This document shows, piece by piece, positions 1,372 through 22,780 of a stretch of 64,000 bases of DNA; the first letter of the stretch is position 1; every line of letters begins with the position of its first letter. This DNA is from a virus. The stretch lies in IMG/VR virus record IMGVR_UViG_3300028393_000021; one strand, 5' to 3'. A program made the translations under genes and the position numbers. The notes under the pieces were generated by a model. The model worked only from the letters and a program-made list of their open reading frames with translations. It was not told the origin of the DNA and searched no databases.

Positions 1372-4300
1372 TTATTGTGCCTTTATTATTTTTATGTTTG
1401 TATAAAATTCTGCAAGTTCTGGGAACGTATCTATAAATTTTTTATTCCTAATGGTATCATAGTATTCCGTGTTTTCTTTAAATTCTTGTTGTGCAATTTC
1501 ATTAACCGACGATGAATCTAACTGACTTATTACGTTTTTTATTTGATTTTTTATCATGCTATAGTTACTATCTGATAGTAAATCCATAGTTTTAATTTTA
1601 TCTAATAACTTATCTTTAATATTATTTTTAATGTCAGCATTAATAATGTTAAAACTGTAAAAATTTGGATTAATAATATTATAAAACGTTACGTTGGTTG
1701 TGTCATCAACAAAATTGTTTTCAATCATATAATCTATAAATTCTGGAATTGTATAAACATTGAACACAGATATCACAGATGAAATACCTATGAATATATG
1801 AGGGCATGATTCTTTAACTTTTTTAATATTTTGTACGATAGTTGGCCAATCGGTACCTTCTCGAATGTATTCAGCTCGACTGCCCCAACTATCTAAACTT
1901 ACGTTTAAATGAATATTGGAAAACTCTTTCCATAACTTAATTACTGATAAATTTTTAAAGGTCAACGAACTTAAATTAGAATTATATCTAATTTTTATAT
2001 TTGTATTTCCGGTATTAATCAAATATTCAAGTATTTCGTAATGTTTGTCCATTAATAAAGGTTCGCCACCAGCAAAGTAAATTTCTTTAATTCCGGTTAT
2101 ATGAGGTCTAAGCTGATCAAATAATAAATCATTATTTTTTCCTCCTGAAAAAATAAAAACTTTTTTATTTTTGCCTTGCTTGTTATCTTCAGTGGCCCAA
2201 CTAGAACTATATGTACTAGAACAGCTTCGACATTTGAAATTACAGATGTTGCTCCATCGTATGTCAAGATATTTTAATTCCATTGTTTCCAAAGATCCAT
2301 CCTGGTTTGTGTCATGTACTAAATTTATAGATTCTGAAAGATACGAGGCATTCGATGATTGTCTAAAACTATGCACATTTGCATTTTCATTTTGATAACA
2401 AGCACTACATTCATCACATTTTTTACCTGTTAACATTTTTAATCGCATTGACTTATATCGATCATTGTTCCATATTTCACTAATTGAATTTTGCTGTACA
2501 TTACCTAACGGTTTGGTATAATCTCCAATACAGCAAGGTAGTACATCTCCATCTGGGTTTGCGTAAAAATGTATCCAGGGCAGTATACAAAATGTATTGG
2601 ACTGTTTTATAGCAATTTTAAATTGTTGATTTAACCAATTGTAATCGTTGATATTACTGATCGGTTCTTGGCTCAACGCATATTTGTTACCTTGCTCTGC
2701 TCCTAATTTTGCCCATTTATAATATTCAGCTGTGACATCTGGATTTAACCATGCTTGCAATCGTTTGTTAGATTCTGCATCTTCTTTTTTAGATAACTTG
2801 GCACATTCTCTAAATGCGGTTCTCCATGTGGCACAATCAGAAGTGTTAAATTTAGTAATGTTGCTAATTTTATTGATTACTTTTAACTTTTTTGATACAC
2901 TTAATGTTAGGTCAGTACCCCATGATTTAAGATATTGTATCTTCGACTTGCTAAACAGCTTAACACCTCCGAAACCATAAGTCAAACCATTAACCGGATT
3001 TATACTATTCCAAACATAGGTGCAATCTCTATCAAATATATTTGGTTGGAAATCAAATTGCCAATCATCCAATAAGTATGCATCTCCATCAACTACATAG
3101 AACATGTCAGACTTGGCTAATTTAGCCGCTGCCTTATGTGCTTCAAATATACCAGTAACTCTATCTACTCGTTTGGCCCAAGGTGCTTTTTCTAATACAC
3201 GTTGCCAATTATCTTCAGCATTTAATTCATAGTAACTAATAAAAATAACATCTAACTGTTTGGCAATGTTAGGTAATAATGTATCAATTTGTTTTACTCC
3301 TGCTGTATCATCAATGGCTGTTGCACTTAACGCCCAAATATTAGTTTGATTAGTTATAGATCGATCCAACATCCATACATGTTCATATTTAAAATCATGC
3401 CAAGGGATAACATAATCTATATCATAACTTAATTTGGGTAAATTAGGATTATAGGTTATTTTGATAATTGGACTGACATAATCAATTATCTTAGACCCGT
3501 CAAGTTCAGTGGATACTTGTAAGGTAAATGCCCATATATCATCTTCACCATTTTGTAGGTGTTTGCGATCCAACATCCATACATGTTCATATTTAAAATC
3601 ATGCCAAGGGATAACATAATCTATATCATAACTTAATTTGGGTAAATTAGGATTATAGGTTATTTCAATTTTGGGACTAACATAATCAATTATCTTAGAC
3701 CCGTCAAGTTCAGTGGATACTTGTAAGGTAAATGCCCATATATCATCTTCACCATTTAATAAATGCTTACGGTCTATCATCCACACATGTTCAAATTTAA
3801 AATCATGCCAGGGGATAACATAATCTATATCATAGGTCATGGGCGGTAAGTTTGTATTATAGGTTATTTCAATTTTGGGACTGACATAATCAATTATCTT
3901 AGACCCATCAAGTTCAGTGGATACTTGTAAGGTAAATGCCCATAAATCATCTTCACCATTCAATAAATGTTTTTGATCCAACATCCACACATGTTCAAAT
4001 TTAAAATCATGCCAGGGGATAACATAATCTATATCATAGGCCATGGGCGGTAAGTTTGGATTGAGTATCACAGTATATTCTGGACTAATTGTGCCTATCC
4101 ATTTCCAATCTTTAGGAGCTCCCCACATGGGTTTAAATTTAATCACCCATAATCTTTTATCAGCAGAGGATATATGTTTATTATCTAAATCATATGCACA
4201 CTCGTAGATCAAATCCCAATAAGGTGGACAGCATTCATTGACATCAACACCGAGGTCAGGTAATACATCATTGAAAGATACTTCTATATCTGGAATTATA

Positions 4301-4812
4301 TATCCCATGTGTTTAGTACCTAATATATCCCCCTCAACTAGTTGACAGCTGAATACCCAAACATCCTCATCTAATGGATTAAATCTAGGATCCATGTACC
4401 ATATTAACTGGTAGTTCTTTTCCCATGGACTCGGTTGATATAGTCCGTAGGGGTTATCTTCAAACGTAATTTGTTTATCAACATCTGAATTGTAGGACCA
4501 GATTATTTTGGGTTTAACAATTTCAACCTGTTCATACCCGTGATATGGATACCAATCTTGTTTAAATATCTTAACTATCCATTCTCCCTGATAGCTAAGT
4601 ATTACACATTTCCTTGTATCAGGAATTGTATCTACATAAAACTTTAAATCAGTATCCCATTGCTCTGGAATATTATTGTTGGGGTTTATTACCCAAAATT
4701 CCTTATGCCCTTTGCCCAATCCAAACAATTGAAAATCGTAGTGTAAAGGATCGCCAGTCCATGTTATGGCTGCGACTTTTTTTGGTGAGAGTTGATAGAG
4801 GTGTTCGAACAT
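1372..4812 (-). CDS. Multidomain protein: N-terminal 68-aa repeats + glycosyltransferase-like domain + twitch/radical SAM domain
   Basis: Repeats YDIDYVIPWHDFKxEHVWM; central DVIFISY...FYVVDGDA (DxD-like); FCILPWIH...PCC; WSNICNFKCRSC (CxxxCxxC); YFAGGEPL. Confidence 0.85.
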   Translation of the reverse strand: MFEHLYQLSPKKVAAITWTGDPLHYDFQLFGLGKGHKEFWVINPNNNIPEQWDTDLKFYVDTIPDTRKCVILSYQGEWIVKIFKQDWYPYHGYEQVEIVKPKIIWSYNSDVDKQITFEDNPYGLYQPSPWEKNYQLIWYMDPRFNPLDEDVWVFSCQLVEGDILGTKHMGYIIPDIEVSFNDVLPDLGVDVNECCPPYWDLIYECAYDLDNKHISSADKRLWVIKFKPMWGAPKDWKWIGTISPEYTVILNPNLPPMAYDIDYVIPWHDFKFEHVWMLDQKHLLNGEDDLWAFTLQVSTELDGSKIIDYVSPKIEITYNTNLPPMTYDIDYVIPWHDFKFEHVWMIDRKHLLNGEDDIWAFTLQVSTELDGSKIIDYVSPKIEITYNPNLPKLSYDIDYVIPWHDFKYEHVWMLDRKHLQNGEDDIWAFTLQVSTELDGSKIIDYVSPIIKITYNPNLPKLSYDIDYVIPWHDFKYEHVWMLDRSITNQTNIWALSATAIDDTAGVKQIDTLLPNIAKQLDVIFISYYELNAEDNWQRVLEKAPWAKRVDRVTGIFEAHKAAAKLAKSDMFYVVDGDAYLLDDWQFDFQPNIFDRDCTYVWNSINPVNGLTYGFGGVKLFSKSKIQYLKSWGTDLTLSVSKKLKVINKISNITKFNTSDCATWRTAFRECAKLSKKEDAESNKRLQAWLNPDVTAEYYKWAKLGAEQGNKYALSQEPISNINDYNWLNQQFKIAIKQSNTFCILPWIHFYANPDGDVLPCCIGDYTKPLGNVQQNSISEIWNNDRYKSMRLKMLTGKKCDECSACYQNENANVHSFRQSSNASYLSESINLVHDTNQDGSLETMELKYLDIRWSNICNFKCRSCSSTYSSSWATEDNKQGKNKKVFIFSGGKNNDLLFDQLRPHITGIKEIYFAGGEPLLMDKHYEILEYLINTGNTNIKIRYNSNLSSLTFKNLSVIKLWKEFSNIHLNVSLDSWGSRAEYIREGTDWPTIVQNIKKVKESCPHIFIGISSVISVFNVYTIPEFIDYMIENNFVDDTTNVTFYNIINPNFYSFNIINADIKNNIKDKLLDKIKTMDLLSDSNYSMIKNQIKNVISQLDSSSVNEIAQQEFKENTEYYDTIRNKKFIDTFPELAEFYTNIKIIKAQ
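3361..4056. repeat. Four near-identical tandem repeats, 204-bp period (68 codons)
   Basis: Anchor aaaatcatgc at 3391, 3595, 3799 and 4003. Confidence 0.95.
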
Positions 4813-8413: not shown

Positions 8414-9172
8414 ATGACCAACAAAAAATTAGGCATCATCCAAACTAGAGGGCTGGGCGATATAGTACTGGCCCTACCCATTGCACTACATTATCGAGAA
8501 CAGGGCTACGACATTTTCTGGCCCATAACCGATACGTGGGTGGAACAAATGAACCACTACGTGCCCTGGATCAAATGGATACCCGTGCCCCAAGATTCCG
8601 GAGCTTTCTTCTACGATATCCCCATGCAACGTTTGAAGAATTTTAAATGCGACGAGATACTGTGCTTGTACAATTCACTGACCGGACACCCTGAATTTGC
8701 TGAAGAACCCTACTTCCAATTCACTACGTTTGATCAATACAAATATACCAAGGCGGGCGTGCCGTTTCTGGACAAATGGCGCTTGAACGAATGTATTACA
8801 CGTGACCCCGAGAGAGAACAGACCCTCTACGATAAAAAAGTTAAAAATCCCAACTATATAGTCACCCACTTGACCAGCAGTCAACATACTGTACCCTTTG
8901 ATACTAGTATTGTACCCCCAGATTGGGATATAATAAACATAGACTCAGATGGCTATATATTTGATTGGCTTAAAATTATTGAAGGCGCTCAGAGCATAGT
9001 TATGACTAACTCAGTGTTTGCTAACATGGTTGATCTACTGAAAATAGGCGATGACAAATACTTTATACCCTTGCATCATCTGAACTGGAGCCCAACGTTT
9101 GGCACAACATGGCAGTGGCTGAACAACACAGAACCCTCACAATGGCAAAAAAGTATTACTGCCCAGAGCTAA
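8414..9172 (+). CDS. Glycosyltransferase, GT9 (heptosyltransferase)-like
   Basis: N-terminal IIQTRGLGDIVLALP resembles the GT9 (I/L)GD motif. Confidence 0.6.
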   Translation: MTNKKLGIIQTRGLGDIVLALPIALHYREQGYDIFWPITDTWVEQMNHYVPWIKWIPVPQDSGAFFYDIPMQRLKNFKCDEILCLYNSLTGHPEFAEEPYFQFTTFDQYKYTKAGVPFLDKWRLNECITRDPEREQTLYDKKVKNPNYIVTHLTSSQHTVPFDTSIVPPDWDIINIDSDGYIFDWLKIIEGAQSIVMTNSVFANMVDLLKIGDDKYFIPLHHLNWSPTFGTTWQWLNNTEPSQWQKSITAQS

Positions 9173-9182
9173 TGTACACTGT

Positions 9183-9743
9183 CTAAGACGCCCACGAGAA
9201 TAACACATTCTTTGGGCTATCTAAGGCAGCATAAGATCCAATGCTACTAATGGTACTGGGCTTTGAGGCTAGATCCTTGAAACTACTGACCCTGAACTTT
9301 TCCCACTTACTATATCTACCCGTGTTCTCATTGTACTTGGTGCGTAATAGATGCTGGTTACTTTCCCCATACTCGCGTAGATCCTCCCAATGAGCTTTGG
9401 GTAAAAAGAAATAATCTAATTCCTCACGGAACTCATTGTATATCACTGCACGTATATCCCCAGCTTTGGGCGTGAGAGTCTTTCGACTGAGTATGTTACC
9501 AATTACTGCTGTGCGATCATGACGTCTACATGTGCCCGTTTTGGTGTCACTGAAATCACTATTGTCATAATGGTTTTCATCAACAAACTCATATTCCCCT
9601 ACCCTACACATGGCCACTTCCACTATATGCTCTACATTGTAATGACGCCAATTGGCTAATATAGTGCTTAATTGCCCGGGAAGAGCATACTCAGGTAAGT
9701 GAGCATGAGCTATGTCTTGAAGTATCCGTTGATGTTTGTTCAT
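9183..9743 (-). CDS. Hypothetical protein (likely start MNKHQ at 9743)
   Basis: ORF track 9183..9875; first 44 codons overlap non-coding-looking repeats. Confidence 0.55.
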   Translation of the reverse strand: MNKHQRILQDIAHAHLPEYALPGQLSTILANWRHYNVEHIVEVAMCRVGEYEFVDENHYDNSDFSDTKTGTCRRHDRTAVIGNILSRKTLTPKAGDIRAVIYNEFREELDYFFLPKAHWEDLREYGESNQHLLRTKYNENTGRYSKWEKFRVSSFKDLASKPSTISSIGSYAALDSPKNVLFSWAS

Positions 9744-10213: not shown

Positions 10214-10858
10214 ATGAATCACTGTATATACTGTAGTAAGGAAATTAATAGCACACGCTCAAAACAGCAGCACGAACTTCGCTGTAAGCATAATCCACAG
10301 GCTATAGTAGTTAAAGCATCATACGGCATGTTAGGCAAACAAGGAAGAAATCAATATTCAAAAGCAAAGGATGAAGGAAGACAGGAACCAAAACAGACTT
10401 CCGAATCTAGGGCTAAAGGATTAGCAACTAAAATTAGAAATGGAACTCTAACTCATACTGAAGAATCAAAAAAGAAATTATCCGACTCTATGAAACGGGC
10501 TGTACTGAAAAACCCCGCAGCATATACCAGCAGTAACCGAGGACGAACCAAACAAATCATAGTTGACGGAGTTAAACTACAAGGGCAATGGGAAGTTGAC
10601 TTTTATAAATGGGCAACTGTTGAAGGATTAGCGCCGAAAAAGGTTGAACAAGGGTTTCCCTATATATGGAATGATAATGAACACGCATACTTCCCGGACT
10701 TTTATATTCCCAGTCTGGACATATACGTAGAAGTTAAAGGTTACGAAACCGACCGTGATCGGGCCAAGTGGTTGCACTTCCCTTATAAGTTGTGTATAAT
10801 AAAAGCTAAGGAAATAAAACAAATCCGTACGGGTAGTTTTAGAGGGTTGGTAGCTTAG
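10214..10858 (+). mobile_element. Free-standing homing endonuclease-like gene (Zn finger + NUMOD3-like + PD-(D/E)XK)
   Basis: CIYC...HELRC; HTEESKKKLS; PDFYIP...YVEVKG. Stop codon lies inside the tRNA. Confidence 0.7.
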
Positions 10859-10920
10859 TGTCCTAAAGCAGTGTTCTCATAAAGCATTGATCGTGGGTTA
10901 GAATCCCACCCAACCCACCA
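10844..10920 (+). tRNA. tRNA with CAU anticodon (elongator Met or Ile2), CCA encoded
   Basis: Full 77-nt cloverleaf: acceptor GGGTTGG/CCAACCC, D stem GCTT/AAGC, anticodon loop CTCATAA, T stem GTGGG/CCCAC, A73, CCA. G1-C72 pair argues against an initiator. Confidence 0.92.
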
Positions 10921-10954
10921 TAGTGTATATAGTGTATATAGAGTATAAACCGTA

Positions 10955-11190
10955 AACGCAATGATAAGCATAACCGATGAGAAGAGGGGCCGGAAGCCCG
11001 AGTATATCTCCTTGCTGTGCTGAGTAGGAATCGTAGATCCACGTTAGTTGCGTTGAATCAGTGACCGTACCCTTCCGGTGGTCGAGGCTAGTGTATTAAC
11101 TTACGCAGGAACCAGCTGATCGGGGGATTATCCTGAAACTCGCGGAGATAATCCACTGATTAATAGGACTCAAATGGGTCCTATTATCTT
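10955..11190 (+). ncRNA. Candidate structured ncRNA of unknown family
   Basis: No ORF; nested stems aacgcaa/ttgcgtt, aatcagtg/cactgatt, ggattatc/gataatcc, gacc/ggtc; ends in hairpin taataggac/gtcctatta plus T-rich tract. Confidence 0.55.
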
Positions 11191-11305: not shown

Positions 11306-11602
11306 TTAACTACAAGCGTATTGACGAGCGGGGATTAACTTATTATCCTCTATATACTTTAATACTGTATAAAAGTGTTCTCTGGGTAATGTATCCTGCC
11401 GCATAATATTATCATGCAACTGTGCAGCATTTAGAGTATTATTAAACACTTGTAGTGCAGCAGCATTATGAGTAATATCATCTGCACACATTTTAAACAT
11501 AATAAAGTCCGTTTCATTTTCATCATAAAACGCTACAGTATTAACAAGTGGGATCATTAACTTATTAATAGCTACTGCATGTTGTGTCATTTGCTTGCTC
11601 AT
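11306..11602 (-). CDS. Hypothetical early protein, paralog of 12024..12323
   Basis: Shares HAVAINKLM, FKMxADDI, PREHFYTVLKYIEDN with the paralog; SD aaggaa upstream. Confidence 0.8.
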   Translation of the reverse strand: MSKQMTQHAVAINKLMIPLVNTVAFYDENETDFIMFKMCADDITHNAAALQVFNNTLNAAQLHDNIMRQDTLPREHFYTVLKYIEDNKLIPARQYACS

Positions 11603-11620
11603 TTTGGTTCCTTTTTAAAA

Positions 11621-11881
11621 TTAAACAAACTCAATATTATTTGTACGCAATTGTTGTTTTACAATTTGTACAATACGTTCTTTATCTTTTTGCAATGTTT
11701 TATATACTATATCACCGCTAACATAATCACATTTTTTTTGTGTAGGAAATACATGTACAGTATCTCCATTATCATTTTGTTTTGTATGTACATTAAAGGC
11801 AACTATAATCTTATATAGTTCCGTTTTTTTATTGTACATTAACTTGGCTTTAGCAAGTGTATTAACTGCTTGTGCAAACAT
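11621..11881 (-). CDS. Hypothetical early protein (86 aa, MFAQAVNT...)
   Basis: SD aaggag 5 nt before ATG at 11881; promoter TTGACG-17-TACAAT at 11935-11907. Confidence 0.75.
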   Translation of the reverse strand: MFAQAVNTLAKAKLMYNKKTELYKIIVAFNVHTKQNDNGDTVHVFPTQKKCDYVSGDIVYKTLQKDKERIVQIVKQQLRTNNIEFV

Positions 11882-12023
11882 GTCAGCTCCTTTGTAGTGT
11901 AAGTGTATTGTAACACCGTTTTGGAGTGCCGTCAAGTGTGGCTTTATATACACGGTCATAGTGTAGGGGGATTGACAAAGTGGCAAAAGTGTTGTATAAT
12001 ACATTTTTAACAGAAAGTAAACA

Positions 12024-12323
12024 ATGCGTAAAGTAACTCGAGCCCATGCTGTAGCAATTAACAAGTTAATGCTGCCTCTCATTAATACTGTTTGCGGCTA
12101 TTTTGACCCCACAGATAATGACATCGATTTGTTTAAAATGTACGCAGACGACATTGCACATAATGTTGCTGCATTATGTGTGTTCAATAGCACATTAGAC
12201 GCTAGTGTATTACACAATAATATTATGTTACAGGATACTAGCCCGCGTGAGCATTTTTATACAGTGTTAAAGTATATAGAAGATAATGCGTTAATTAATG
12301 CTAATGCATTTTGTTGCAGTTAA
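12024..12323 (+). CDS. Hypothetical early protein, paralog of 11306..11602
   Basis: Clear sequence similarity to the paralog; promoter at 11972-12000. Confidence 0.8.
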   Translation: MRKVTRAHAVAINKLMLPLINTVCGYFDPTDNDIDLFKMYADDIAHNVAALCVFNSTLDASVLHNNIMLQDTSPREHFYTVLKYIEDNALINANAFCCS

Positions 12324-12483
12324 ACACAGCACAAAGGCCCTGCTTGTTGTAGGGTCTTTGCCTAGGTGCTGTTGTGCATTTACAACAAAAGACCCTACAA
12401 AAAATAAGTTATTGACAAGTGTGTAAAACTGCGTTATAATACACACATACGTTGCACAGTGTAGCGTATAAAAAGGAACTAAA

Positions 12484-12948
12484 ATGCAAGCAATTAATAC
12501 ACAAACAGTTAAACAGTTTATTAATAACGTAACAACAGAGGGCTTTTTGTTTATTATAGATGTTAATAAAACATTTACTACAGCAGGTGACGGTTACTGG
12601 AGCGACGTTGCAAAAGATGTATTTGTTACTAGTATTGGCATGTATATTAGCACAGAAAACGAAGCAGACGAGGGCGAGGAAGCTATGTACTGCGACGGTG
12701 ATTTAGCAGTTAATTATACAGAAGCTACATGGGATAATGCTGTAGACGGATTAATTTATACTGACAAAGCATTTTTAGCACAAGTAAAAGAGTTTTTAAT
12801 TGCACAGGGCTTTAATGCAGAAGCAGTTAATGACATTACATATAGCGAGCAGGGTATGCAAGATAATGAGCGTGTTAGTTGCGATGCATATGCGTTTGCA
12901 GATTATATGCGTACTATTAGTAATGCTGCTATTATTATTATAGATTAA
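12484..12948 (+). CDS. Acidic hypothetical early protein with no Pro and no TC/CC dinucleotide
   Basis: SD aaagga; promoter 12412-12440; 154 aa. Confidence 0.8.
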   Translation: MQAINTQTVKQFINNVTTEGFLFIIDVNKTFTTAGDGYWSDVAKDVFVTSIGMYISTENEADEGEEAMYCDGDLAVNYTEATWDNAVDGLIYTDKAFLAQVKEFLIAQGFNAEAVNDITYSEQGMQDNERVSCDAYAFADYMRTISNAAIIIID

Positions 12949-12955
12949 TAGCATA

Positions 12956-12986
12956 ATAGCACAGCGTATTAACTACGCTGTGCTAT
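12956..12986. other. Perfect 13-bp hairpin after 12484..12948, followed by a second hairpin (gccctac/gtagggt) just before the next -35
   Basis: atagcacagcgta-ttaac-tacgctgtgctat; no U tract. Confidence 0.75.
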
Positions 12987-13065
12987 AGCCCTACAGTGTG
13001 TAGGGTCTTTGGTTGACAATTTAGTAAAACCCTGTTATAATACAGTTATACACTAGGAGCACACA

Positions 13066-13395
13066 ATGCAAACACACATTTCAGAGACCAGGGAAGCTGG
13101 CTTCTTTGCTTATGCCGCAATGAGGGATGCTCGTATGCGTAACGAAGCAATGAAAAGCACCTACAGTGATTCAGAACGTGTACGAGCAGAGCGTATGCGT
13201 GTGGGACTAGAGTGTGTTTACCGTAGTAAAGAAGTACACATAAACTACCGTAAAAAGTTCATTGCGGTAAAACTTAGTAATGCAATTGTCAGAGACAGGG
13301 CTTCTGTAGCAGATTTAGAACGTTTTTATGCACTAGAGGGCATAAGCAAAGAAATTACGCCCCAAGCAATTATATACAGAATCCCCCGTCATTGA
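13066..13395 (+). CDS. Hypothetical early protein
   Basis: Promoter 13013, SD aggag. Confidence 0.75.
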   Translation: MQTHISETREAGFFAYAAMRDARMRNEAMKSTYSDSERVRAERMRVGLECVYRSKEVHINYRKKFIAVKLSNAIVRDRASVADLERFYALEGISKEITPQAIIYRIPRH

Positions 13396-13443
13396 TTAGG
13401 GTCTTTGGTTGACTGAGGGATAAAACCCAGTTATAATACACAT

Positions 13444-13629
13444 ATGATAAAAACATACGAACGAACAGCGATCCTACTGTTGAAAGGCCAGCCCAAGGCC
13501 AAGACGCGGGGGCGGGTGATACATGGCAGATTTATCTTATTCTATGAGAGTCTGCACCGTACTCCGCAGAGTCGTGCGTGGCGCCGGTTCATAAAGATGC
13601 GGGAACGGGTTGACATTTTGGTAAAATGA
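13444..13629 (+). CDS. Hypothetical basic protein, predicted leaderless
   Basis: ATG 6 nt after TATAAT; no SD. Confidence 0.6.
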   Translation: MIKTYERTAILLLKGQPKAKTRGRVIHGRFILFYESLHRTPQSRAWRRFIKMRERVDILVK

Positions 13630-13644
13630 TTGTATAATACACAC

Positions 13645-13848
13645 ATGAACAAAGAACTTGCAACCCTAGAAAAATTATTGGCCAGTCATGATTGGTATCA
13701 CCAATACTGTGACGACTATAGTGCATACAAGCGAGGAGAGGACGAATGGTACCGTATCAACGTAGAACAACGGCGTTTGATCAATGAAAACTTGGTTTCT
13801 TCAGAGGAAATCCAAGCATTAACTTCCAAATACAGGCCTATCAGGTAA
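13645..13848 (+). CDS. Hypothetical protein, predicted leaderless (MNKELATL...)
   Basis: ATG 6 nt after TATAAT (13633-13638). Confidence 0.7.
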   Translation: MNKELATLEKLLASHDWYHQYCDDYSAYKRGEDEWYRINVEQRRLINENLVSSEEIQALTSKYRPIR

Positions 13849-13891
13849 AAAAACGGTTGACAATAAATGGACATTGTGCTATAATACATTT

Positions 13892-14116
13892 ATGAAATCA
13901 AAAATCTTTATTGTTCAACGTGACAACGACAAGTATTTTAAGCAGAAACTGCCTACATGGCGCAATGGTTTCTGTGAAATAGTCCGTAATGTCACTATTG
14001 AAAAGGACCCACACGACATCTACCAAGATGGCGAGTGGGGCTACATCACAGTTTATGGCCGTAAGATTTATGTCACTAGATCTGGCACTGAATTTGCTTT
14101 TGAAATTCGTGGCTAA
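13892..14116 (+). CDS. Hypothetical protein, predicted leaderless (MKSKIF...)
   Basis: ATG 6 nt after TATAAT (13880-13885). Confidence 0.7.
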   Translation: MKSKIFIVQRDNDKYFKQKLPTWRNGFCEIVRNVTIEKDPHDIYQDGEWGYITVYGRKIYVTRSGTEFAFEIRG

Positions 14117-14155
14117 AAGGTTGACATTTTGGTAAAATGATTGTATAATACACAT

Positions 14156-14500
14156 ATGAACAAAGAACTTGTACCCCGTAAGAAGCGAGTTGACCGCAAT
14201 CATATAATATATGAGCTTGTAGTCAATGGGCTCAACTACATTGGTGTCACTGCCAAGACTGAGACCACTGTATTGAAGAGCGTTCGTGCTCGAGCTGCCA
14301 AGCACTTCTACCGTGCTAAGACTGAGAACAAGGATTGGTTATTGTGCGAAGCTTTACGTTCTTTGAATGACAAGAGCGAGATAGAGATTCGTGTGCATGA
14401 AGTTATACGTGGCAAGGCGGCTGCTCACAAGCGGGAAGTTGAGATCCGCAGAATGATTAACCCTGCGCTGAACACGGACATTCGCGGTGACTTGACATAA
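14156..14500 (+). CDS. GIY-YIG-like small nuclease, predicted leaderless
   Basis: IIYELVVNGLNYIGVT, then R...H and downstream E; ATG 6 nt after TATAAT. Confidence 0.6.
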   Translation: MNKELVPRKKRVDRNHIIYELVVNGLNYIGVTAKTETTVLKSVRARAAKHFYRAKTENKDWLLCEALRSLNDKSEIEIRVHEVIRGKAAAHKREVEIRRMINPALNTDIRGDLT

Positions 14501-14547
14501 CGGTCAAAAGGCGCTATAATACATACTTAAACAACAAAGGAGCAGAA

Positions 14548-14829
14548 ATGAAACAAGACTACACTCTTTACATCTACAAGCGGGATCGTCGTTGCAAGGC
14601 TGGCGAACGCTTGTTCTCCACCACAGTGTGGCCCGGAATGGATCGGGATGGGATGAATCGCACTGTGACAGAGCTGTACCCCTTGTACAAGGCCACAGAG
14701 GGATGGCGTATGGAGTTCCATCCTGTGATGAAGACTGTGAAGAACTTGATGTCGGGGCAGGAGGTGCAGATCCGACATGACACACCTCGTTCATGTGATC
14801 CTTCAAGTGAACTCTATTGGAGCATGTAA
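14548..14829 (+). CDS. Hypothetical early protein
   Basis: Promoter 14492, SD aaggag. Confidence 0.75.
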   Translation: MKQDYTLYIYKRDRRCKAGERLFSTTVWPGMDRDGMNRTVTELYPLYKATEGWRMEFHPVMKTVKNLMSGQEVQIRHDTPRSCDPSSELYWSM

Positions 14830-14895
14830 AGACCCTAGTGGTTGACAGGGTTATTAGAACTGTGTTATAATACACTTACATTAAAAGGAGTTGCT

Positions 14896-15060
14896 ATGTT
14901 TTACAGTCATGATGAGTACAATGGACAAGTTGACGAGTTAATGAGTAACGAGCGTTATAGTTTTGCAGAGGCCTGTGCCATAGTGCAATATCGCATGGAG
15001 CAGGACCAGCAGGAGTACAATGACTGGCTTGATGGGAAAGCCGTTGAGACTCAAGTTTGA
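14896..15060 (+). CDS. Hypothetical early protein (MFYSHDEY...)
   Basis: Promoter 14842, SD aaggag. Confidence 0.7.
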   Translation: MFYSHDEYNGQVDELMSNERYSFAEACAIVQYRMEQDQQEYNDWLDGKAVETQV

Positions 15061-15095
15061 AGTTATAATACATACATCGCAACAAGGAGCACACT

Positions 15096-15179
15096 ATGAC
15101 AGACTTTCAAATGTGGATGACAGTGGCAGTGATTGTAATCATCTTTGCGGTCAAGGTTTGGATCCTCACTAAAATCTAA
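15096..15179 (+). CDS. 27-aa hydrophobic peptide
   Basis: MTDFQMWMTVAVIVIIFAVKVWILTKI; SD aaggag; TATAAT at 15064. Confidence 0.6.
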   Translation: MTDFQMWMTVAVIVIIFAVKVWILTKI

Positions 15180-15188
15180 GGAGATAGC

Positions 15189-15524
15189 ATGAACATTCAA
15201 GACATCAACAAGGCCATACTGTTTGGCACATTCACTAACAACGAACTCACCAGTGTCATTGATGCTGTGAAGTTTGCTCGAGCACGTCTTACAGAGAAGA
15301 CCAAGCGGAGTCTGCGTATAGGTGACAATGTGACTTTCGACAGTGCCAAGCAGGGTCGTAACATCACTGGTGTAGTGATGAAGATTGCTATCAAATATGT
15401 CACAGTCAAGACAATTAGCGGTCTGTGGAAAGTGCCTGCGAACATGTTGACATTGGTGCTGGATGAGGAATGGACTCCAGACAATGCAGACTTCTGCGAT
15501 CCAGGCTCACGTCATCACTATTGA
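15189..15524 (+). CDS. Hypothetical protein with KOW/SH3-like segment
   Basis: LRIGDNVTF...GVVMKI...VTV; SD aaggag. Confidence 0.65.
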   Translation: MNIQDINKAILFGTFTNNELTSVIDAVKFARARLTEKTKRSLRIGDNVTFDSAKQGRNITGVVMKIAIKYVTVKTISGLWKVPANMLTLVLDEEWTPDNADFCDPGSRHHY

Positions 15525-15581
15525 GGGGTTGACACATTGGTAAAACCGTGTTATAATACACTTACACAACAAGGAGTTAAT

Positions 15582-15764
15582 ATGTTTGAAAAAGACCCCC
15601 GAGAGTTTGCTTTAGATCTTGTAGATCAAGGTATGATAGATCCTATGATGTTATTGACTGCGGCCCTTAACTGGATGAGTCATGAAGAAGTACGCGACAT
15701 GCTGGACGCTAACGAATTGAGCCCACGTTTCAGCGAAGAAGAGAACGAGGAGGACACAGAATGA
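15582..15764 (+). CDS. Hypothetical acidic protein
   Basis: Promoter 15529, SD aaggag. Confidence 0.7.
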   Translation: MFEKDPREFALDLVDQGMIDPMMLLTAALNWMSHEEVRDMLDANELSPRFSEEENEEDTE

Positions 15765-16141
15765 CACGCTATTACGACACCATTGTAGCATTTGAGCGAG
15801 ACGGCTTTGACATCATTGTGGACAAGACCTATGAAGACATGCACCCCAGGGACAGCTTCGATGACAGCTGCCACGACGTTGACGAGATCTGCAAGGACAT
15901 TGATAACGGGCAACTCGAATGGTTCATGTTGCGAGTACGTGTACTCGTTGAAGGGCTCGAGTTGGGCAGTGCCTACCTCGGGGGATGCCTATACGAAGAC
16001 CCCAAAGAGATCCTTACTGACGGGACTGCCGAAGACTTCATTGCTGAGGCTATGACTGAAGCCAAGAGCAAGGTCTACAGTATGTACAAGCGGTTTCAAG
16101 AGTTGAGCTTTAATATTGACGCAGAAGGCATTAATGCATGA
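15761..16141 (+). CDS. Hypothetical protein
   Basis: ATGA overlap with upstream ORF; SD gagga. Confidence 0.7.
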   Translation: MTRYYDTIVAFERDGFDIIVDKTYEDMHPRDSFDDSCHDVDEICKDIDNGQLEWFMLRVRVLVEGLELGSAYLGGCLYEDPKEILTDGTAEDFIAEAMTEAKSKVYSMYKRFQELSFNIDAEGINA

Positions 16142-16362
16142 AGTTAAATGAAGTACTACAGTGGACGGGCACTGTATGCATACTGGCCATGTATCTGTCG
16201 ATGAACTTCTTCCGTGAGCTGGCCCTGGATCCCGTGTTCGGACTCATGGGCGGATTGTGCTATGCCGCTTGGTCATACCGTGTGGCAAACAAGCCACAGT
16301 TGATTGTCAACGTTGTGGCAATAGCCGTATGCGTTATAGGGTTATATAACACACTCGGTTGA
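16138..16362 (+). CDS. Small membrane protein
   Basis: Three hydrophobic segments; ATGA overlap. Confidence 0.65.
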   Translation: MKLNEVLQWTGTVCILAMYLSMNFFRELALDPVFGLMGGLCYAAWSYRVANKPQLIVNVVAIAVCVIGLYNTLG

Positions 16363-16412
16363 CAGAGTGGTAAAACCACTGTATAATACATACATCGCAA
16401 CAAGGAGAAGAC

Positions 16413-16613
16413 ATGTTTACTACACAAGCCCAACAAGAGTTCAAGCAGTCACTGAAAGCATTCAACGCCGCTAAGGAAGCAGAGTATTCCTACGCATACA
16501 CCGCAGGCTACTGCGAGAGCATGGTCGTTGAGATGTTTGGTCTGCTGACAAAGAAGCAACAGAAATTATTTGCAGAGCAGATACAAAAAGAGCTTGACAA
16601 GCTGGCTGTTTGA
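16413..16613 (+). CDS. Hypothetical early protein
   Basis: Promoter 16359, SD aaggag. Confidence 0.7.
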   Translation: MFTTQAQQEFKQSLKAFNAAKEAEYSYAYTAGYCESMVVEMFGLLTKKQQKLFAEQIQKELDKLAV

Positions 16614-16648
16614 TTGTATAATACATACATACACTAAAAGGAGTTGAT

Positions 16649-16840
16649 ATGATGACAGAGCAAGAGTTTGAAACAAGGTTTGACAACTACGAGTTGGATG
16701 ACGCCTATGCAGAATACATTATGGAACGTTGCGGCGGCGACCGTGTTATTTGCAACGGTGACACACTGATCGCCGCTATGGAGGACGGCTACCTCTTTGA
16801 CAGTTTTAAAGACAGTTTGGTTGACACTCAAGCAGTTTGA
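16649..16840 (+). CDS. Hypothetical acidic early protein
   Basis: Promoter 16594, SD aaggag. Confidence 0.7.
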   Translation: MMTEQEFETRFDNYELDDAYAEYIMERCGGDRVICNGDTLIAAMEDGYLFDSFKDSLVDTQAV

Positions 16841-16875
16841 CAGTACAATATACACTTACACACTAAGGAGCAGAG

Positions 16876-17142
16876 ATGAAAGCATTGCAAGCATACGTGG
16901 ATCAGAAGAACAAGTGGAACGCGATCTTCAACGGGAAGCAGTATGAGATCGTGAGCAAGTTTGGTCGCCTGGAAGTGGCTGGTATGTTGGACGCAGACTT
17001 GAGTCCAGAGAACTTGACCTGCGATGGCGAACTGCCCCGTGCAGAGGTTGCTCGCCGCTACAAGACATTGACCAAGGCAGCACAGGAGTTGGTGCAGTTG
17101 GATCCGTCAGTTAAGATCTACGAATTCTACACAGGAGAATAA
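16876..17142 (+). CDS. Hypothetical early protein
   Basis: Promoter 16821, SD aaggag. Confidence 0.7.
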   Translation: MKALQAYVDQKNKWNAIFNGKQYEIVSKFGRLEVAGMLDADLSPENLTCDGELPRAEVARRYKTLTKAAQELVQLDPSVKIYEFYTGE

Positions 17143-17143
17143 G

Positions 17144-17356
17144 ATGAAAGCCTATGTGACCACTATCATTCGTCAGGAGTTGGAAGTGCCAGACAGTTGG
17201 GAGCGAGAGGATGTGCTGGACTTCCTGTCAGAGGTGCAATCATTCCGCACTGCCTTCCAGGGTGTGAGCAATGAAGATCAGACTGCCCGTATCATTGATC
17301 TGGGTGTTGTGGAAGAAGAGATTACTGAACTTGGTGAGGAGAGCTTCGATGCCTGA
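17144..17356 (+). CDS. Hypothetical protein
   Basis: SD aggag; starts 1 nt after the upstream stop. Confidence 0.7.
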   Translation: MKAYVTTIIRQELEVPDSWEREDVLDFLSEVQSFRTAFQGVSNEDQTARIIDLGVVEEEITELGEESFDA

Positions 17357-17427
17357 AGACCCTAGTGGTTGACAGGGTATTGAAACGGTGTTATAATACA
17401 CTTACACTGAAACACTAAGGAGCTGAT

Positions 17428-17685
17428 ATGTCTAACTACCCAAATATGAGTTACTGCATGAATGAGAACACTCTGGCAGCAATGAATCAGATTGTCAATG
17501 CAATGAACGAAGAGGGCCCGGCGTTCCTCACAGAGATGTCGCGTGATGAGAAGCGGGCATTCCAACAACTGTTCAACGTGTGTGAGGACTTCATGTCGTT
17601 GAGCGAAGAACTGCAAGAGGAAGTAGAGCGTGACGGACAGCCTTCGGAACATGACGAATGGATGTCATTTGACGCTGACTGCTAA
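17428..17685 (+). CDS. Hypothetical early protein
   Basis: Promoter 17369, SD aaggag. Confidence 0.7.
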   Translation: MSNYPNMSYCMNENTLAAMNQIVNAMNEEGPAFLTEMSRDEKRAFQQLFNVCEDFMSLSEELQEEVERDGQPSEHDEWMSFDADC

Positions 17686-17803
17686 GAGACAAGGCGTTTG
17701 GGCGGCCAGTGACCTGCCCATTGTAAGACCAATCTAATAACCCTAATGGTTGACAGGGTATTAGAACTGTGTTATAATACACTTACACTAGATAGGAACA
17801 GAA

Positions 17804-18022
17804 ATGAACGAACGAATTAAACAACTTTTAAATCAGGCTGGAATCTATCAACCTGACCGGTTTGACGCTATTGACGGAAGCAATCAAATGGAAAAGTTCG
17901 CCGAGTTGATTGTGGAAGAATGTGCCAAAGTATGCGACTTGTATGCAATGCCCGACGGCACCAGTGAAACTGCGATCATTCTCGCTTATGCTATTCGTAG
18001 GAAATTTGGAGTTGAAGAATGA
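17804..18022 (+). CDS. Hypothetical early protein
   Basis: Promoter 17750, SD agga. Confidence 0.7.
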   Translation: MNERIKQLLNQAGIYQPDRFDAIDGSNQMEKFAELIVEECAKVCDLYAMPDGTSETAIILAYAIRRKFGVEE

Positions 18023-18273
18023 TTACAGCAAAGAACGTTCGCTACATGATCGACATTCCGCTTGAGCACATGAAAGCCATTGCCTCGAACAACAAAATCA
18101 AAGGCTTGAACATCACAGGAGTAGAGTTCCTGGGCATCACCAACGGCGGGCAGTTCTGCTACACAGCAGTCTTCCAAGTCAAAGACGGGACAGACAGCAC
18201 CAAAGTATTCCTAACCTATGACCACACAGAGGATAGGGTTATTGCTGACTACCATTTGACAGAATTGGCATAA
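18019..18273 (+). CDS. Hypothetical protein
   Basis: Overlaps upstream stop. Confidence 0.65.
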   Translation: MITAKNVRYMIDIPLEHMKAIASNNKIKGLNITGVEFLGITNGGQFCYTAVFQVKDGTDSTKVFLTYDHTEDRVIADYHLTELA

Positions 18274-18310
18274 GACAGTATAATACACACATAAACAACA
18301 AAGGAACAGA

Positions 18311-18484
18311 ATGACACATCACTTAGTAATTATTGCACAGTTTGCCCGGGACAACGGGCTTACACTTACAGAAACTATAGAGTACATCGGCAATAATTAC
18401 GACGACCTAACAGAAGAGATTGTTAGCGCATATGAGGACACTTATATGGAGCTAATGCAATTTGTAGAGACCCAGACAGCCTAA
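18311..18484 (+). CDS. Hypothetical 57-aa protein (MTHHLVII...)
   Basis: Hand translation; promoter 18256, SD aaagga. Confidence 0.65.
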   Translation: MTHHLVIIAQFARDNGLTLTETIEYIGNNYDDLTEEIVSAYEDTYMELMQFVETQTA

Positions 18485-18551
18485 GGGTCATTGACAGCAG
18501 GCCCGAAACCTGCTATAATACATACTTACACAAACACACTAGGAGCACTAA

Positions 18552-18992
18552 ATGGGAACACGAAGCACTATTGCATTGGAATTCGCAGACGGCACAGTCC
18601 AGCAAGTATATTGCCACTGGGATGGTTACTTGGAGCACAACGGCAAGATCCTGTTGGAACACTACAGCGATCCGTTCAAACTGCGCGACTTGATTGACTT
18701 GGGCGACATGTCCAGCTTGGCCGCTAACATTGGTACACAACACAGCTTCAACAACCTAGTCGAAGGCGAATGCACATTCTACGGACGCGATCGCGGCGAG
18801 ACTAGTGTAAGTGCCAAGCAGTTCAAAGACATCGAGGACTATTACGCAAACGTCCAAGGCGAGGAATACGACTATATCCTCAGCATGAACTGGGAAGGCA
18901 AGGCTCAGTGGTATGTGCGACACTACGCAACTGGCGGCACTTGGATTGGATTAGAAATGGCATTTGAACAACAAGCAAAGGAAACAGCATGA
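18552..18992 (+). CDS. Hypothetical early protein (MGTRSTIA...YCHWDGY)
   Basis: Promoter 18491, SD aggag. Confidence 0.75.
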   Translation: MGTRSTIALEFADGTVQQVYCHWDGYLEHNGKILLEHYSDPFKLRDLIDLGDMSSLAANIGTQHSFNNLVEGECTFYGRDRGETSVSAKQFKDIEDYYANVQGEEYDYILSMNWEGKAQWYVRHYATGGTWIGLEMAFEQQAKETA

Positions 18993-19171
18993 GCACACTG
19001 AAAGATTTGGCCTACGATATCGAGCAACTGTATATCGACGGCTTCAACTCGCGAGCTATTGCAAACGAATTGAACTGCCCGATTGAGATTGTTCTGGGCG
19101 CATTGGAAGCAATGAATGTGGCTGATGCGCCACAAGAGGAGGAGATTTATAGTCCCTACTACGGCGCCTAA
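18989..19171 (+). CDS. Hypothetical protein, possible small HTH
   Basis: GFNSRAIANELNCP segment; ATGA overlap. Confidence 0.6.
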   Translation: MSTLKDLAYDIEQLYIDGFNSRAIANELNCPIEIVLGALEAMNVADAPQEEEIYSPYYGA

Positions 19172-19271
19172 CTCCAAATAATGGTTGACAACGTTCCAAA
19201 ATCGTTGTATAATTAAATTATGGACAGCAAGGTGCTGCTCATATTACACAGACACACATAAAGGAATTATC

Positions 19272-19682
19272 ATGTCTAAATCATTTACCCATGCAGGCGT
19301 TTCTAAACAAGACGGTCAGTTCAAAGTTCGCTTCGCCAATGATGCTCTTCGAGTCAAGGTCTTGGCCAAGAACGGTCACAGCGATATCGATATCATCGAG
19401 CTCAAAGAGCCTATGAGCAAAGAAGATGCTATTGCATTTCTAATATCCATTGACTTCGCTACACAAAACGGTGTTACCAACGCCGCAGTCCAAGCTGCTC
19501 TATTTGATGCAGTTGACAAACGGGCCGTTGCCCCTGCTAAGACCGCCAAAGTCAAGGCAGTCAAAGCAGTCAAGACCGCGCCCACAATGGAATCCATCAA
19601 GGCCAAGGCCACTAAGGCAGCTCCTAAGAGCACAGTGTCCAAAGCAGAGATTGTTGCACAGATGGAAGACGCACCCTACTAA
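19272..19682 (+). CDS. Hypothetical protein with Lys/Ala-rich histone-like tail
   Basis: AKTAKVKAVKAVKTAP...; promoter 19185, SD aagga. Confidence 0.7.
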   Translation: MSKSFTHAGVSKQDGQFKVRFANDALRVKVLAKNGHSDIDIIELKEPMSKEDAIAFLISIDFATQNGVTNAAVQAALFDAVDKRAVAPAKTAKVKAVKAVKTAPTMESIKAKATKAAPKSTVSKAEIVAQMEDAPY

Positions 19683-19771
19683 GCACTGCGGGGTATTGGG
19701 GCCAGAGTGCCCCTCTTTGGAGAACACACTATATTCATATGCTGTGTTCTCCAAAGACACTAGGAAATAAC

Positions 19772-20029
19772 ATGAGCAGACTTTCGTTATATGGCAGGCA
19801 ATGGGTGGTATTTGATGCTCAGAACAAGCAACATCGTCAGTGGTTTGCAGGGTTCCAAAAACGAAATTCTTGGAGCGATTGTCCCGTACGTTTCATTATT
19901 GATGATGAGAACGGAGACTTACTAACCATGATACAACGCCGCTTGATTGATTATTACACCGTTCGAGAATTCGGCAAAATAAAGAAACAAAAAATAGTTC
20001 AAAAAAGATTGACATTGATTAAAGATTAA
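19772..20029 (+). CDS. Hypothetical protein (MSRLSLYG...)
   Basis: SD agga directly after a 13-bp hairpin. Confidence 0.65.
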   Translation: MSRLSLYGRQWVVFDAQNKQHRQWFAGFQKRNSWSDCPVRFIIDDENGDLLTMIQRRLIDYYTVREFGKIKKQKIVQKRLTLIKD

Positions 20030-20079
20030 TGTAATATAATTGTAACTGTGCAAACAGTACAACATTAAGGAAAACAAAA

Positions 20080-20355
20080 ATGCAAACTTTAAACATCAAC
20101 AAGGGTACTAAAACCCACAAGTTATTTACAGCCCTCAAAGAGGGTGACAAGGTAACTGCTAGTCAGGCTGAAAAGCGTTTTGGTATCAAGAACGTGTCCG
20201 CTGAAGTTAGTCGCATTCGTCAAGCAGGTTTTGCTGTGTATCGTAAGAACCGCGTGGCCGGTAATCATACTCATGTGGTCGAGTATGTGATGGGCACACC
20301 GTCACGTGAGATCGTTGCCGCTGGCTATCGTGCTATGCAACTTGGTCTAGTCTAA
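20080..20355 (+). CDS. Winged helix-turn-helix DNA-binding protein
   Basis: VTASQAEKRFGIKNVSAEVSRIRQAGFAV pattern. Confidence 0.65.
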   Translation: MQTLNINKGTKTHKLFTALKEGDKVTASQAEKRFGIKNVSAEVSRIRQAGFAVYRKNRVAGNHTHVVEYVMGTPSREIVAAGYRAMQLGLV

Positions 20356-20550
20356 AAGTTGCTCCGAAGTCCTGTAGAAATACAGGCATTAAGCCCGGAG
20401 GGTAGTGTCTCCGGCAACCCCCGAAAGCCCTGCTCGTGAGAGTCGGGCTTTCTCCTATTTGCCTTTCCATTTACTAGCTGCCTTCATCCGTTCGGTTGAC
20501 AGATAAATACTTCGACGTTATAATTAAGACTCGAACAAGGAGATCAAGCT

Positions 20551-20895
20551 ATGAAAAAGATTCTTATCGCCCTAGCACTCGGTGCTACCCTAGTCAGCAG
20601 TGCCCAAGCACAATGGGATCGACATCACGGACACCACGGCGGCTATCGCGCCCAAAGTGGAGGCAATTGGATTGCACCCTTGATCATCGGTGGCATTGCT
20701 GGTGCAGTGATTGCCCGTGAGTCGGCTCCTGTGATTGTTCAACCTCAATCGGTCTATGTCCAACCTCAAGTGATTGCTCAACAACCACAAGGCTTCGTTC
20801 AATGCCCTCCAGGAACTATGCCCTTTGAACAGCGTGGATGGGTTCGCAATCCGTGGGGTCAATGGATCCAATCTTCTTATATCGAATGTAAATAA
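20551..20895 (+). CDS. Secreted or membrane protein with signal peptide and Gly-zipper-like helix
   Basis: MKKILIALALGATLVSSAQA; IIGGIAGAVIA; Q/P-rich. Confidence 0.7.
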   Translation: MKKILIALALGATLVSSAQAQWDRHHGHHGGYRAQSGGNWIAPLIIGGIAGAVIARESAPVIVQPQSVYVQPQVIAQQPQGFVQCPPGTMPFEQRGWVRNPWGQWIQSSYIECK

Positions 20896-20959
20896 CCCTA
20901 TTGGTTGACAGGTTTCTATTTTGGTGTTATAATACATACATAGACAACAAGGAGCTGAC

Positions 20960-21181
20960 ATGGGATATAAGGTTATTGCTGGCAAGGACGAGATGGACAT
21001 GATGCGTCAGAAATACGGTCCACGTAAGGGACTCGAAGGTCCGTTTAACTTCTCAGGCAGAGTGTTGTATTATGACAACATAGAGGGTGCCTACTACGAT
21101 CCAACCACTGACTTCTACGTGGAGCAGAGTGAGATGGACCTGATCAACAACCGATTGATGGAGATACTGGCCCGTGCCTAA
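20960..21181 (+). CDS. Hypothetical early protein
   Basis: Promoter 20905, SD aaggag. Confidence 0.7.
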   Translation: MGYKVIAGKDEMDMMRQKYGPRKGLEGPFNFSGRVLYYDNIEGAYYDPTTDFYVEQSEMDLINNRLMEILARA

Positions 21182-21560: not shown

Positions 21561-21612
21561 CAAAGAGGTAAAACCTTGCTATAATACATACATAGACACT
21601 AAGGAGCACTAA

Positions 21613-22145: not shown

Positions 22146-22208
22146 CCCTAATGGTTGACAGGGTATCAAAATCCTGTTATAATACATACATCGCAACAAG
22201 GAGCAGAG

Positions 22209-22439: not shown

Positions 22440-22440
22440 T

Positions 22441-22745: not shown

Positions 22746-22780
22746 TCGTATAATACATATATCGCAACAAGGAGCACTAC

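Follow-up and report, generated by a model that had tools for sequence, protein, structure and literature searches.

The DNA analysed here (hereafter the window) is a 64,000-nucleotide (nt) stretch of the virus record IMGVR_UViG_3300028393_000021, amounts to about one third of the phage genome and, as judged from its sequence, comes from an uncultured freshwater giant myovirus. Its large terminase is 54% identical to the counterpart in Pseudomonas phage PA5oct, and tail sheath, gp32-, UvsX- and gp15-like genes as well as a DnaB-type helicase are also encoded. The runs containing this DNA are freshwater metagenomes, with data in the form of assembled contigs only. From about 11.9 kb onwards, the window carries an array of small rightward genes, nearly each of which is preceded by a consensus promoter (TTGACA, 17 nt, TATAAT). 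The subject of this report is the second unit of this early array, a cassette comprising a promoter, a leader, a gene for a 154-amino-acid (aa) protein and a 3' hairpin (Table 1), whose sense strand contains neither of the dinucleotides TC and CC (together YC, where Y is a pyrimidine).

Between positions 12395 and 12989 (595 nt), both TC and CC number zero on the plus strand. A preliminary description of this DNA had claimed the absence for 12396–12989, with about 82 cytosines that all follow A or G, and an exact recount of those 594 nt (A 213, T 173, G 126, C 82) returned 0 YC and 82 C, each preceded by a purine (AC 41, GC 41). On the same strand, GA (30) and GG (18) are ordinary, in line with the strand-specific purge that had been proposed, which does not fit avoidance of palindromic restriction sites. 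The second-longest YC-free run in the 64 kb measures 163 nt, and no other 300-nt interval has zero YC. Other genes carry about 7 YC per 100 nt on their sense strands, and, much as the preliminary description had it from about 13060, composition is ordinary from 13066 rightward (YC/C 0.33–0.40); here the approximately 30 early units of 13066–25637, which have the same consensus promoters, contain 7.7 YC per 100 nt of sense strand. The constraint reaches into amino-acid choice, as had also been suggested, since the protein has no proline and its serine codons are exclusively AGY. Synonymous resampling of this proline-free protein with the codon usage of the phage gave a mean of 18.1 YC (standard deviation 3.8) and a minimum of 4 in 20,000 trials, compared to the observed 0; this codon-preserving control, together with conservation in relatives, rules out chance or composition as the cause. 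The cassette has a G-C skew of +0.26 and a purine share of 57%, compared to a phage-wide mean of 55%, and T is higher in the purged genes.

Table 1. Positions in the window of the cassette's features and of the genes and promoters to its left.
Feature	Position	Strand	Details
YC-free run: promoter, leader, gene, first 3' hairpin	12395–12989	+	82 C, all after A or G
Sigma-70-type promoter	12412–12440	+	TTGACA at 12412–12417, 17-nt spacer, TATAAT at 12435–12440; 12 of 12 consensus matches
5'-terminal stem-loop of predicted transcript	12447–12469	+	−8.8 kcal/mol; YC-free, stem without GA/GG steps that need a YC partner
Shine-Dalgarno AAGGA	12473–12477	+	Ends 6 nt ahead of the ATG; assigned from sequence
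154-aa protein gene	12484–12948	+	Zero YC, no Pro, Ser only as AGY
13-base-pair (bp) 3' untranslated hairpin	12956–12986	+	YC-free; directly upstream of terminator
Intrinsic terminator	12988–13012	+	8-bp stem GCCCTACA...TGTAGGGT, then CTTTGG; first YC past the gene
98-aa paralogue	11306–11602	−	Mild depletion: 13 YC, YC/C 0.28
86-aa gene, nearly purged	11621–11881	−	Sense strand with 4 YC, at three places
Leftward promoter of divergent pair	11907–11935	−	TTGACG, 17 nt, TACAAT
Rightward promoter of divergent pair	11972–12000	+	
99-aa paralogue	12024–12323	+	Mild depletion: 4.3 YC per 100 nt

The purge is conserved in related loci. The protein has 629 metagenomic relatives, and locus DNA was taken for 11 + 80 + 80 loci (numbered with the prefix L below). 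A normal TC and CC content across homologues, the outcome that the preliminary description had named as speaking against its proposal, was not found: the gene has zero YC at 53 of 80 metagenomic homologue loci (3,591 C) and in 51 of the 57 loci with at least 50% identity, and 22 loci have YC-free runs of at least 1,000 nt (longest 1,541 nt), covering three to five small, mostly acidic genes. This holds across considerable divergence, with a median DNA identity of 62% among purged genes, 450 of 651 aligned columns variable, and a G+C content of 42–49% in the related phages compared to 38% here. Proline is absent from 118 of the 120 closest homologues, and the ban is kept down to about 43% amino-acid identity. 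Below 50% identity, some loci are fully purged (L087, L091, L123 and L141), and others have ordinary YC (L104–L106, L121, L155, L162, L163 and the cultured Xanthomonas phage BUDD); the purge is also absent in the family members L029, L069, L075, L076, L079 and L081. Gain or loss of the ban has thus occurred among lineages. In 23 partly purged homologues, the 99 residual YC are evenly spread along the gene (bins of 21, 25, 22, 7 and 24). In the distant homologues L082, L087 and L091, the sole YC of an otherwise fully purged gene is a conserved Pro codon, CCN, some 45 nt upstream of the stop and thus near the 3' end.

Codon counts in 33 distinct purged homologues locate the constraint at the level of the dinucleotide. 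Of the more than 2,100 codons whose second base is a pyrimidine, only 4 end in C (GTC 1, GCC 1, ACC 1, ATC 0, TTC 1, CTC 0), and the ratio of NYC to NYT codons is about 4 to about 970; even the first YC is therefore selected against, which fits a reader acting at single sites. After a purine, by contrast, C is favoured as the third base (GGC 52%, GAC 71% of Asp, AGC 66%, with TGC likewise preferred), and the base before codons that start with C is G in 282 cases, A in 168, T in 1 and C in 7 (a purine in 450 of 458). C-ending codons are preferred after a purine, and YC is likewise avoided where one codon meets the next and in the untranslated parts. Both observations rule out codon usage or tRNA supply as the cause, and selection acts on the dinucleotide, not on codons.

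The same counts bear on mutational decay, in which recurrent C-to-T deamination at YC on an exposed strand would have erased the sites. Such a process would produce the uniform loss seen across the transcribed stretch and the somewhat higher T content of purged genes (from 22.8% to 26.4%). Four-fold families, however, replace C-ending mainly by A-ending codons: for Ala and Thr, the lost codons have become A-ending rather than T-ending, and the observed share of T at the third position falls short of what C-to-T decay predicts (Ala 0.34 vs 0.52; Thr 0.30 vs 0.61). In addition, the purines before C-starting codons reflect choice rather than a product of decay, proline is missing from nearly all close homologues, and the CCC of the terminator has been retained. 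We consider decay highly improbable.

The limits of the ban coincide with those of the transcript, which is predicted to start near 12447. In at least 10 loci, YC occurs within the spacer between the −35 and −10 boxes, at about −17 to −25, whereas no locus has one from −12 to the ATG. Downstream, the first YC belongs to the stem of the terminator that ends the unit or lies next to it: terminators of one design have it in their CCC arm, and those of another have it as the last CC of the 3' arm. L004 and L025 have a YC-free terminator, which consists of a hairpin of the 13-bp kind followed by a T run. Where the purge extends into downstream genes, the internal terminators lack the CCC arm and the spacer of the next promoter is YC-free. 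Strictness is uniform throughout, with no easing in the last 100 nt or the 3' untranslated part and no 5'-to-3' gradient. As the YC-free entity, the boundaries at −12 and at the terminator fit the RNA and the polymerase-exposed sense DNA strand equally well. Both hairpins recur in relatives, the leader hairpin being present again and the 3' 13-bp hairpin being kept in L002, L015, L016, L018 and L023, and an Rfam search gave no family match. A contig from a lake metatranscriptome (RNA library) spans 12460–12929 exactly, a weak hint of expression for which DNA carry-over is possible.

The purge also follows the direction of transcription. To the left of the divergent promoters, where the preliminary description had proposed a flip in polarity, our recount of 11608–11922 was identical to its count of 1 GA and 3 GG on the plus strand, equivalent to 4 YC on the minus sense strand, and the purge tracks transcription on both arms. 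The two paralogues, which had been described as partly purged, are indeed depleted, but the description overstated the effect: with about 13 YC each, or 4.3–4.4 per 100 nt compared to about 7 elsewhere, the depletion is only about 40%. In many relatives (L024, L027, L035, L042, L047 and L049), the promoter past the stop of the homologue lies inside an 11-bp perfect inverted repeat, AGCACAGC...GCTGTGCT, with the −35 box in the loop and the 3' arm ending at the −10 box; a conserved TAGGGTTATT, whose pairing partner has been lost, precedes this repeat.

These patterns point to something in the infected cell that reads YC in single-stranded nucleic acid with a large effect, and the transcript is probably what is read. 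Two readings share this premise, one in which an RNA enzyme is the reader and one in which it is the termination factor Rho, and we rank them first and second, respectively, with modest confidence.

In the Rho reading, a YC-free nascent RNA would give Rho no anchor, and transcription would run through the whole unit even with ribosomes trailing; the phage might require the product at a time when Rho has yet to be dealt with, or the product might itself act on Rho. Each of the six primary clefts of the Rho hexamer binds one 5'-YC (PMC12360218, PMC5314796), removal of single YC steps lowers Rho termination and Rho ATPase activity in vitro (PMC5314796), and the purine bias of coding strands is driven by Rho avoidance (PMC13323073). 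The specificity is an exact match, since the ban covers UC and CC but leaves C unrestricted after a purine. The ban follows the transcript, flips with its direction and leaves the cassette RNA without YC from about 12447 to the terminator stem at 12988, and most homologue loci likewise have a gene with zero YC. All genes of the phage are purine-rich on the sense strand (mean 55%), and the deep conservation of the ban suits a universal host factor. Rho, however, requires several spaced YC over 60–90 nt, so that the first one or two are near-neutral, yet most lineages have exactly zero; and YC in the last 100 nt or the 3' untranslated part, which cannot cause premature termination, is equally banned. 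YC density is ordinary in the approximately 30 early units nearby that share these promoters, T rises in the purged genes, and the purine share of the cassette is unexceptional. Rho also leaves unexplained a ban on both strands at one locus, L099, where the ribosome site is lost and GA is gone from the −35 box (see below). Compared to known Rho avoidance, the YC dinucleotide, the nascent RNA, the strand specificity, the dependence on direction and a composition shaped by avoidance are all the same; but the known form is a genome-wide purine shift of a few percent, and here the ban is absolute, is confined to one to five genes, is equally strict at its 5' and 3' ends and spares neighbours with the same promoters. 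On balance, we regard Rho as an unlikely reader. As a separate observation, the sense-strand purine bias of this phage extends to every gene class and is as strong as the Rho-avoidance bias that a 2026 paper describes in Bacillus subtilis.

Readers acting on DNA are, taken together, improbable. In the first form, the non-template strand, exposed as single-stranded DNA during transcription, would be hit by a YC-directed enzyme (an APOBEC-like deaminase with uracil excision, an ADP-ribosyltransferase or a dC-specific single-strand nuclease), so that units transcribed before this enzyme is neutralised must be YC-free on that strand. In keeping with this, the ban sets in at about −12, where the open complex has its upstream edge, and it stops together with transcription. 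YC is also the context favoured by deaminases of the AID/APOBEC type, which are known to leave a partial depletion of TC in viruses (PMC7449416). A gene is nevertheless still expressed when its non-template strand is damaged, which leaves a gene-specific ban without a reason; units with equally strong promoters are unpurged; and the final terminator's CCC arm, although it too lies open in the bubble, is tolerated. The sole deaminase seen in the window, at 34872–35378 on the minus strand, is of the dCMP-deaminase type (4p9c at 1e-32; T4 Cd, 1vq2), and we rejected it as the reader. The footprint of APOBEC3 resembles the present case in that TC (and CC) is depleted in viral genomes as an escape from a reader of pyrimidine-C in single-stranded DNA (PMC7449416). 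It differs in being partial and genome-wide or broad, with no absolute ban within one transcription unit. We know of no established bacterial anti-phage counterpart of APOBEC3, and the replacement of YC by YT that such a reader would leave is not what the homologues display, given the shift of Ala and Thr to A-ending codons. A reader of the non-template strand therefore seems quite unlikely to us. Two kinds of DNA damage were considered and dropped: ultraviolet photoproducts at TC and CC matter on the template and thus concern the wrong strand, and oxidation of G in GG or GA is too infrequent to yield an absolute ban.

Some support for a reader of DNA comes from L099. At 2–5 kb past its one-strand-purged homologue, two cassettes (8855–9346 and 10237–11023) lack both YC and GA/GG, that is, YC on both strands. 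Five amino acids (Asp, Glu, Gly, Trp and Pro) are missing from their predicted proteins, which measure 101 aa and up to 226 aa. GGA is absent from the ribosome sites of the cassettes, and in place of TTGACA the −35 box has the sequence TTGCAA or TTGCGC. Within about 3 kb, YC and GA/GG are confined to palindromic hairpins that occur repeatedly, TCGCACGTGC...GCACGTGCGA. Either a second RNA reader of the CmdT kind (see below) or one reader acting on DNA would account for this, and a reader of DNA is the simplest account of a ban that covers both strands, promoters included. The 101-aa protein shows a weak, below-threshold likeness to winged-helix (MarR/HTH_27) domains.

A second form of DNA-level reading, which takes up an idea of the preliminary description, holds that a G before a purine is modified on the template strand, by a phage system of the 7-deazaguanine type or by a host enzyme, and hinders the host polymerase, so that a gene to be read at once must lack GA and GG on its template. 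The motifs of DpdA in phage CAjan are reportedly GA and GGC. Since a lesion blocks transcription only when it lies on the template strand, this reading would naturally explain why one strand alone is affected and why that strand changes with gene orientation; the cassettes of L099 would then be unmarkable DNA. Yet among the approximately 50 larger open reading frames scanned in the window, itself about a third of the genome, we found no DpdA or TGT-like gene and none of the queuosine pathway, including QueC/D/E- and FolE-like genes. Some 30 other early units with host-type promoters have ordinary template GA/GG and would share a modified template, and the 3' untranslated hairpin would need no ban. 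Moreover, 7-deazaguanine leaves base pairing intact, its change being in the major groove, and DNA that contains it is transcribed readily. We accordingly judge a marked template to be very unlikely.

The 154-aa protein is very acidic, with 26 D/E, 7 K/R and a net charge of about −19. AlphaFold2 gave a confident model (predicted local distance difference test score, pLDDT, 90; predicted template modelling score, pTM, 0.86), and Pfam, PHROG and PADLOC contained no family for the protein. Foldseek against the PDB returned nothing below E = 0.36, the best Z of a wide VIA-align search was 3.6, and the ESM Atlas yielded nothing usable. In BFVD, the best structural relatives are the uncharacterised viral proteins M1HTR4 (42% identity, template modelling score 0.81–0.92) and A0A1J0F9Z3, which indicates that the family extends beyond this phage group. 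The name 'restriction endonuclease Mrr', attached to two homologues by JGI, finds no support in Pfam and fold searches. Other genes in the long purged runs are small, mostly acidic and likewise without families.

The reading that we favour, and hold tentatively, is that the cassette yields a message which escapes a YC-directed, single-site activity on single-stranded RNA, and that its product is the antidote. Evasion of a YC-directed activity by the messenger RNA (mRNA) or the displaced strand was among the possibilities raised in the preliminary description, and it is the class we prefer as well; in addition, we infer that the reader acts on RNA rather than on displaced DNA, that it acts at single sites and that the product counteracts it. 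The activity, which could stem from a host defence or from the phage's own host shut-off, would hit single UC or CC steps and would most likely be an endoribonuclease or an RNA base-modifying enzyme. While it is on, the cassette mRNA alone would stay intact and translatable because it has no YC between its 5' end and the terminator stem. The 5'-terminal hairpin and the YC-free 3' hairpin would protect the ends of the message, and, since this second hairpin lies upstream of the YC-bearing terminator, a message cut in the terminator would still end in a hairpin. The acidic product would probably neutralise the activity or its trigger, making the message for the antidote immune to the poison.

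Several features that trouble the other explanations would find a place here. Neighbouring early units with the same promoters, all matching 12 of 12 consensus positions, have ordinary YC, so the need is tied to this product and not to early transcription, and a patchy purge among family members is expected because not all hosts would have the reader. An RNA enzyme may thus account for the uniform strictness, the hairpins at the ends, the restriction to a few genes (by the logic of an antidote) and the patchiness among lineages.

Some precedents are known. To our knowledge, CmdT, which reads GA, is the only described dinucleotide reader of this kind on mRNA. This anti-phage enzyme ADP-ribosylates the A of GA dinucleotides in single-stranded RNA and blocks translation (PMC11618068). 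The CmdTAC system therefore demonstrates that such readers exist, but its dinucleotide is common in the cassette message, no CmdT-like gene is linked to this phage, and no GA-free phage message is reported in PMC11618068. Similarly, ACA-less messages are translated in cells expressing MazF, and the early T4 protein Dmd is an antidote to the RNase RnlA (PMC5408214), so that both a site-free message that alone is translated under an RNase and an early phage protein that neutralises a host RNase are on record (PMC5408214). The MazF case differs in being engineered and in involving a three-base site. We do not know Dmd's own message to be site-free. The DNA mimics Ocr and ArdA and barstar-like RNase inhibitors are likewise small, strongly acidic early proteins with their own strong promoters; the Pfam, PHROG, Foldseek and VIA-align searches, however, gave no sequence or fold similarity of the 154-aa protein to them, and the likeness to Ocr and ArdA lies in the net charge (−19) only. 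Restriction-site avoidance also involves selection that removes a short word read by a host factor, but those words are of 4–8 bases, mostly palindromic and avoided on both strands, whereas here a two-base word is avoided on one strand at a cost in amino acids. DarT1 was dropped as a candidate reader, being without a consensus motif.

A number of points weigh against the antidote reading. We know of no YC-specific RNase or RNA-modifying enzyme, and no RNase or ADP-ribosyltransferase was recognised among the scanned larger open reading frames of the window. With no family, fold or defence match for the product, its role as an antidote is something we purely infer. Persistence of the ban down to about 43% identity, presumably in different hosts, would be more readily expected of a universal factor such as Rho than of a defence that occurs sporadically, and the boundaries of the ban would be the same for the RNA and for the non-template DNA of the transcription bubble. 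The internal hairpins, too, are YC-free, so that pairing seems not to protect, which is slightly odd for a strict single-strand enzyme. Finally, an RNA-level account of the two-strand ban in L099 has to invoke either read-through transcripts or another, CmdT-type reader.

Searches of open-access papers and bioRxiv found no publication describing a dinucleotide ban that is specific to one strand and delimited by a transcription unit of a phage. The price of the ban is the loss of proline, of all but two of the six serine codons and of freedom in codon choice, which places the ban among the strongest signs of selection obtainable without an experiment. If Rho is the reader, phages have a passive, sequence-encoded bypass of the host's main guard against foreign transcription, and the rule would be directly useful for designing termination-proof genes. 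If, on the other hand, the reader is a nuclease or an RNA-modifying enzyme, a new immune mechanism and a family of inhibitors are marked by sequence alone. Either way, purged genes point to the proteins that the phage needs first. It is possible, although we advance it with reserve, that freshwater bacteria or giant phages carry a new enzyme that cuts or marks single-stranded RNA at YC, with the small acidic phage proteins as a family of antidotes whose genes selection has reshaped, even in amino-acid composition, to make their own messages immune; were this so, attack on mRNA by reading dinucleotides would be a general arm of the conflict between phage and host, legible in phage sequence.

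The preliminary description took these to be first-expressed genes, a view that the position of the 154-aa gene does not bear out, as it is the second unit of the rightward array and in relatives lies within long arrays of small genes. Many related contigs end 0.4–6 kb from the gene, and here it sits tens of kb inside the contig. We read those contig ends as assembly breaks because the early region is repeat-rich and variable among strains, and dropped a position at the genome end as an explanation. A search of the phage collection gave no DNA match, and a search of species genomes for relatives returned none.

Additionally, the left arm, which comprises the 86-aa gene and a paralogue, is rearranged. 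At L044 (2343–2657), a homologue of the 86-aa gene lies upstream of the 154-aa gene on the same strand, so that the left arm of the window is inverted relative to relatives, and contigs of related strains from two DNA runs join 11879 and 11924 to 17430–18019 on opposite strands. Together, these observations indicate that the divergent promoter is a recombination breakpoint. Just left of the purged module, a homing-endonuclease-like gene (10214–10858, plus strand; phrog_15137) shows a weak endonuclease I-like match, and another, GIY-YIG SegE-like, is found at 59557–60120 (plus strand). Among the replication genes, 30103–30666 (plus strand) encodes an AlgH/YqgE-like (DUF179) protein of a bacterial family. 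The first 4,812 nt of the window (1–4812, minus strand) encode two adjoining large radical SAM proteins, which are unusual as phage cargo: one, truncated at the edge of the window, has at least 457 aa, and the other has 1,146 aa and a SPASM/twitch domain (NF033640, E = 4e-118).

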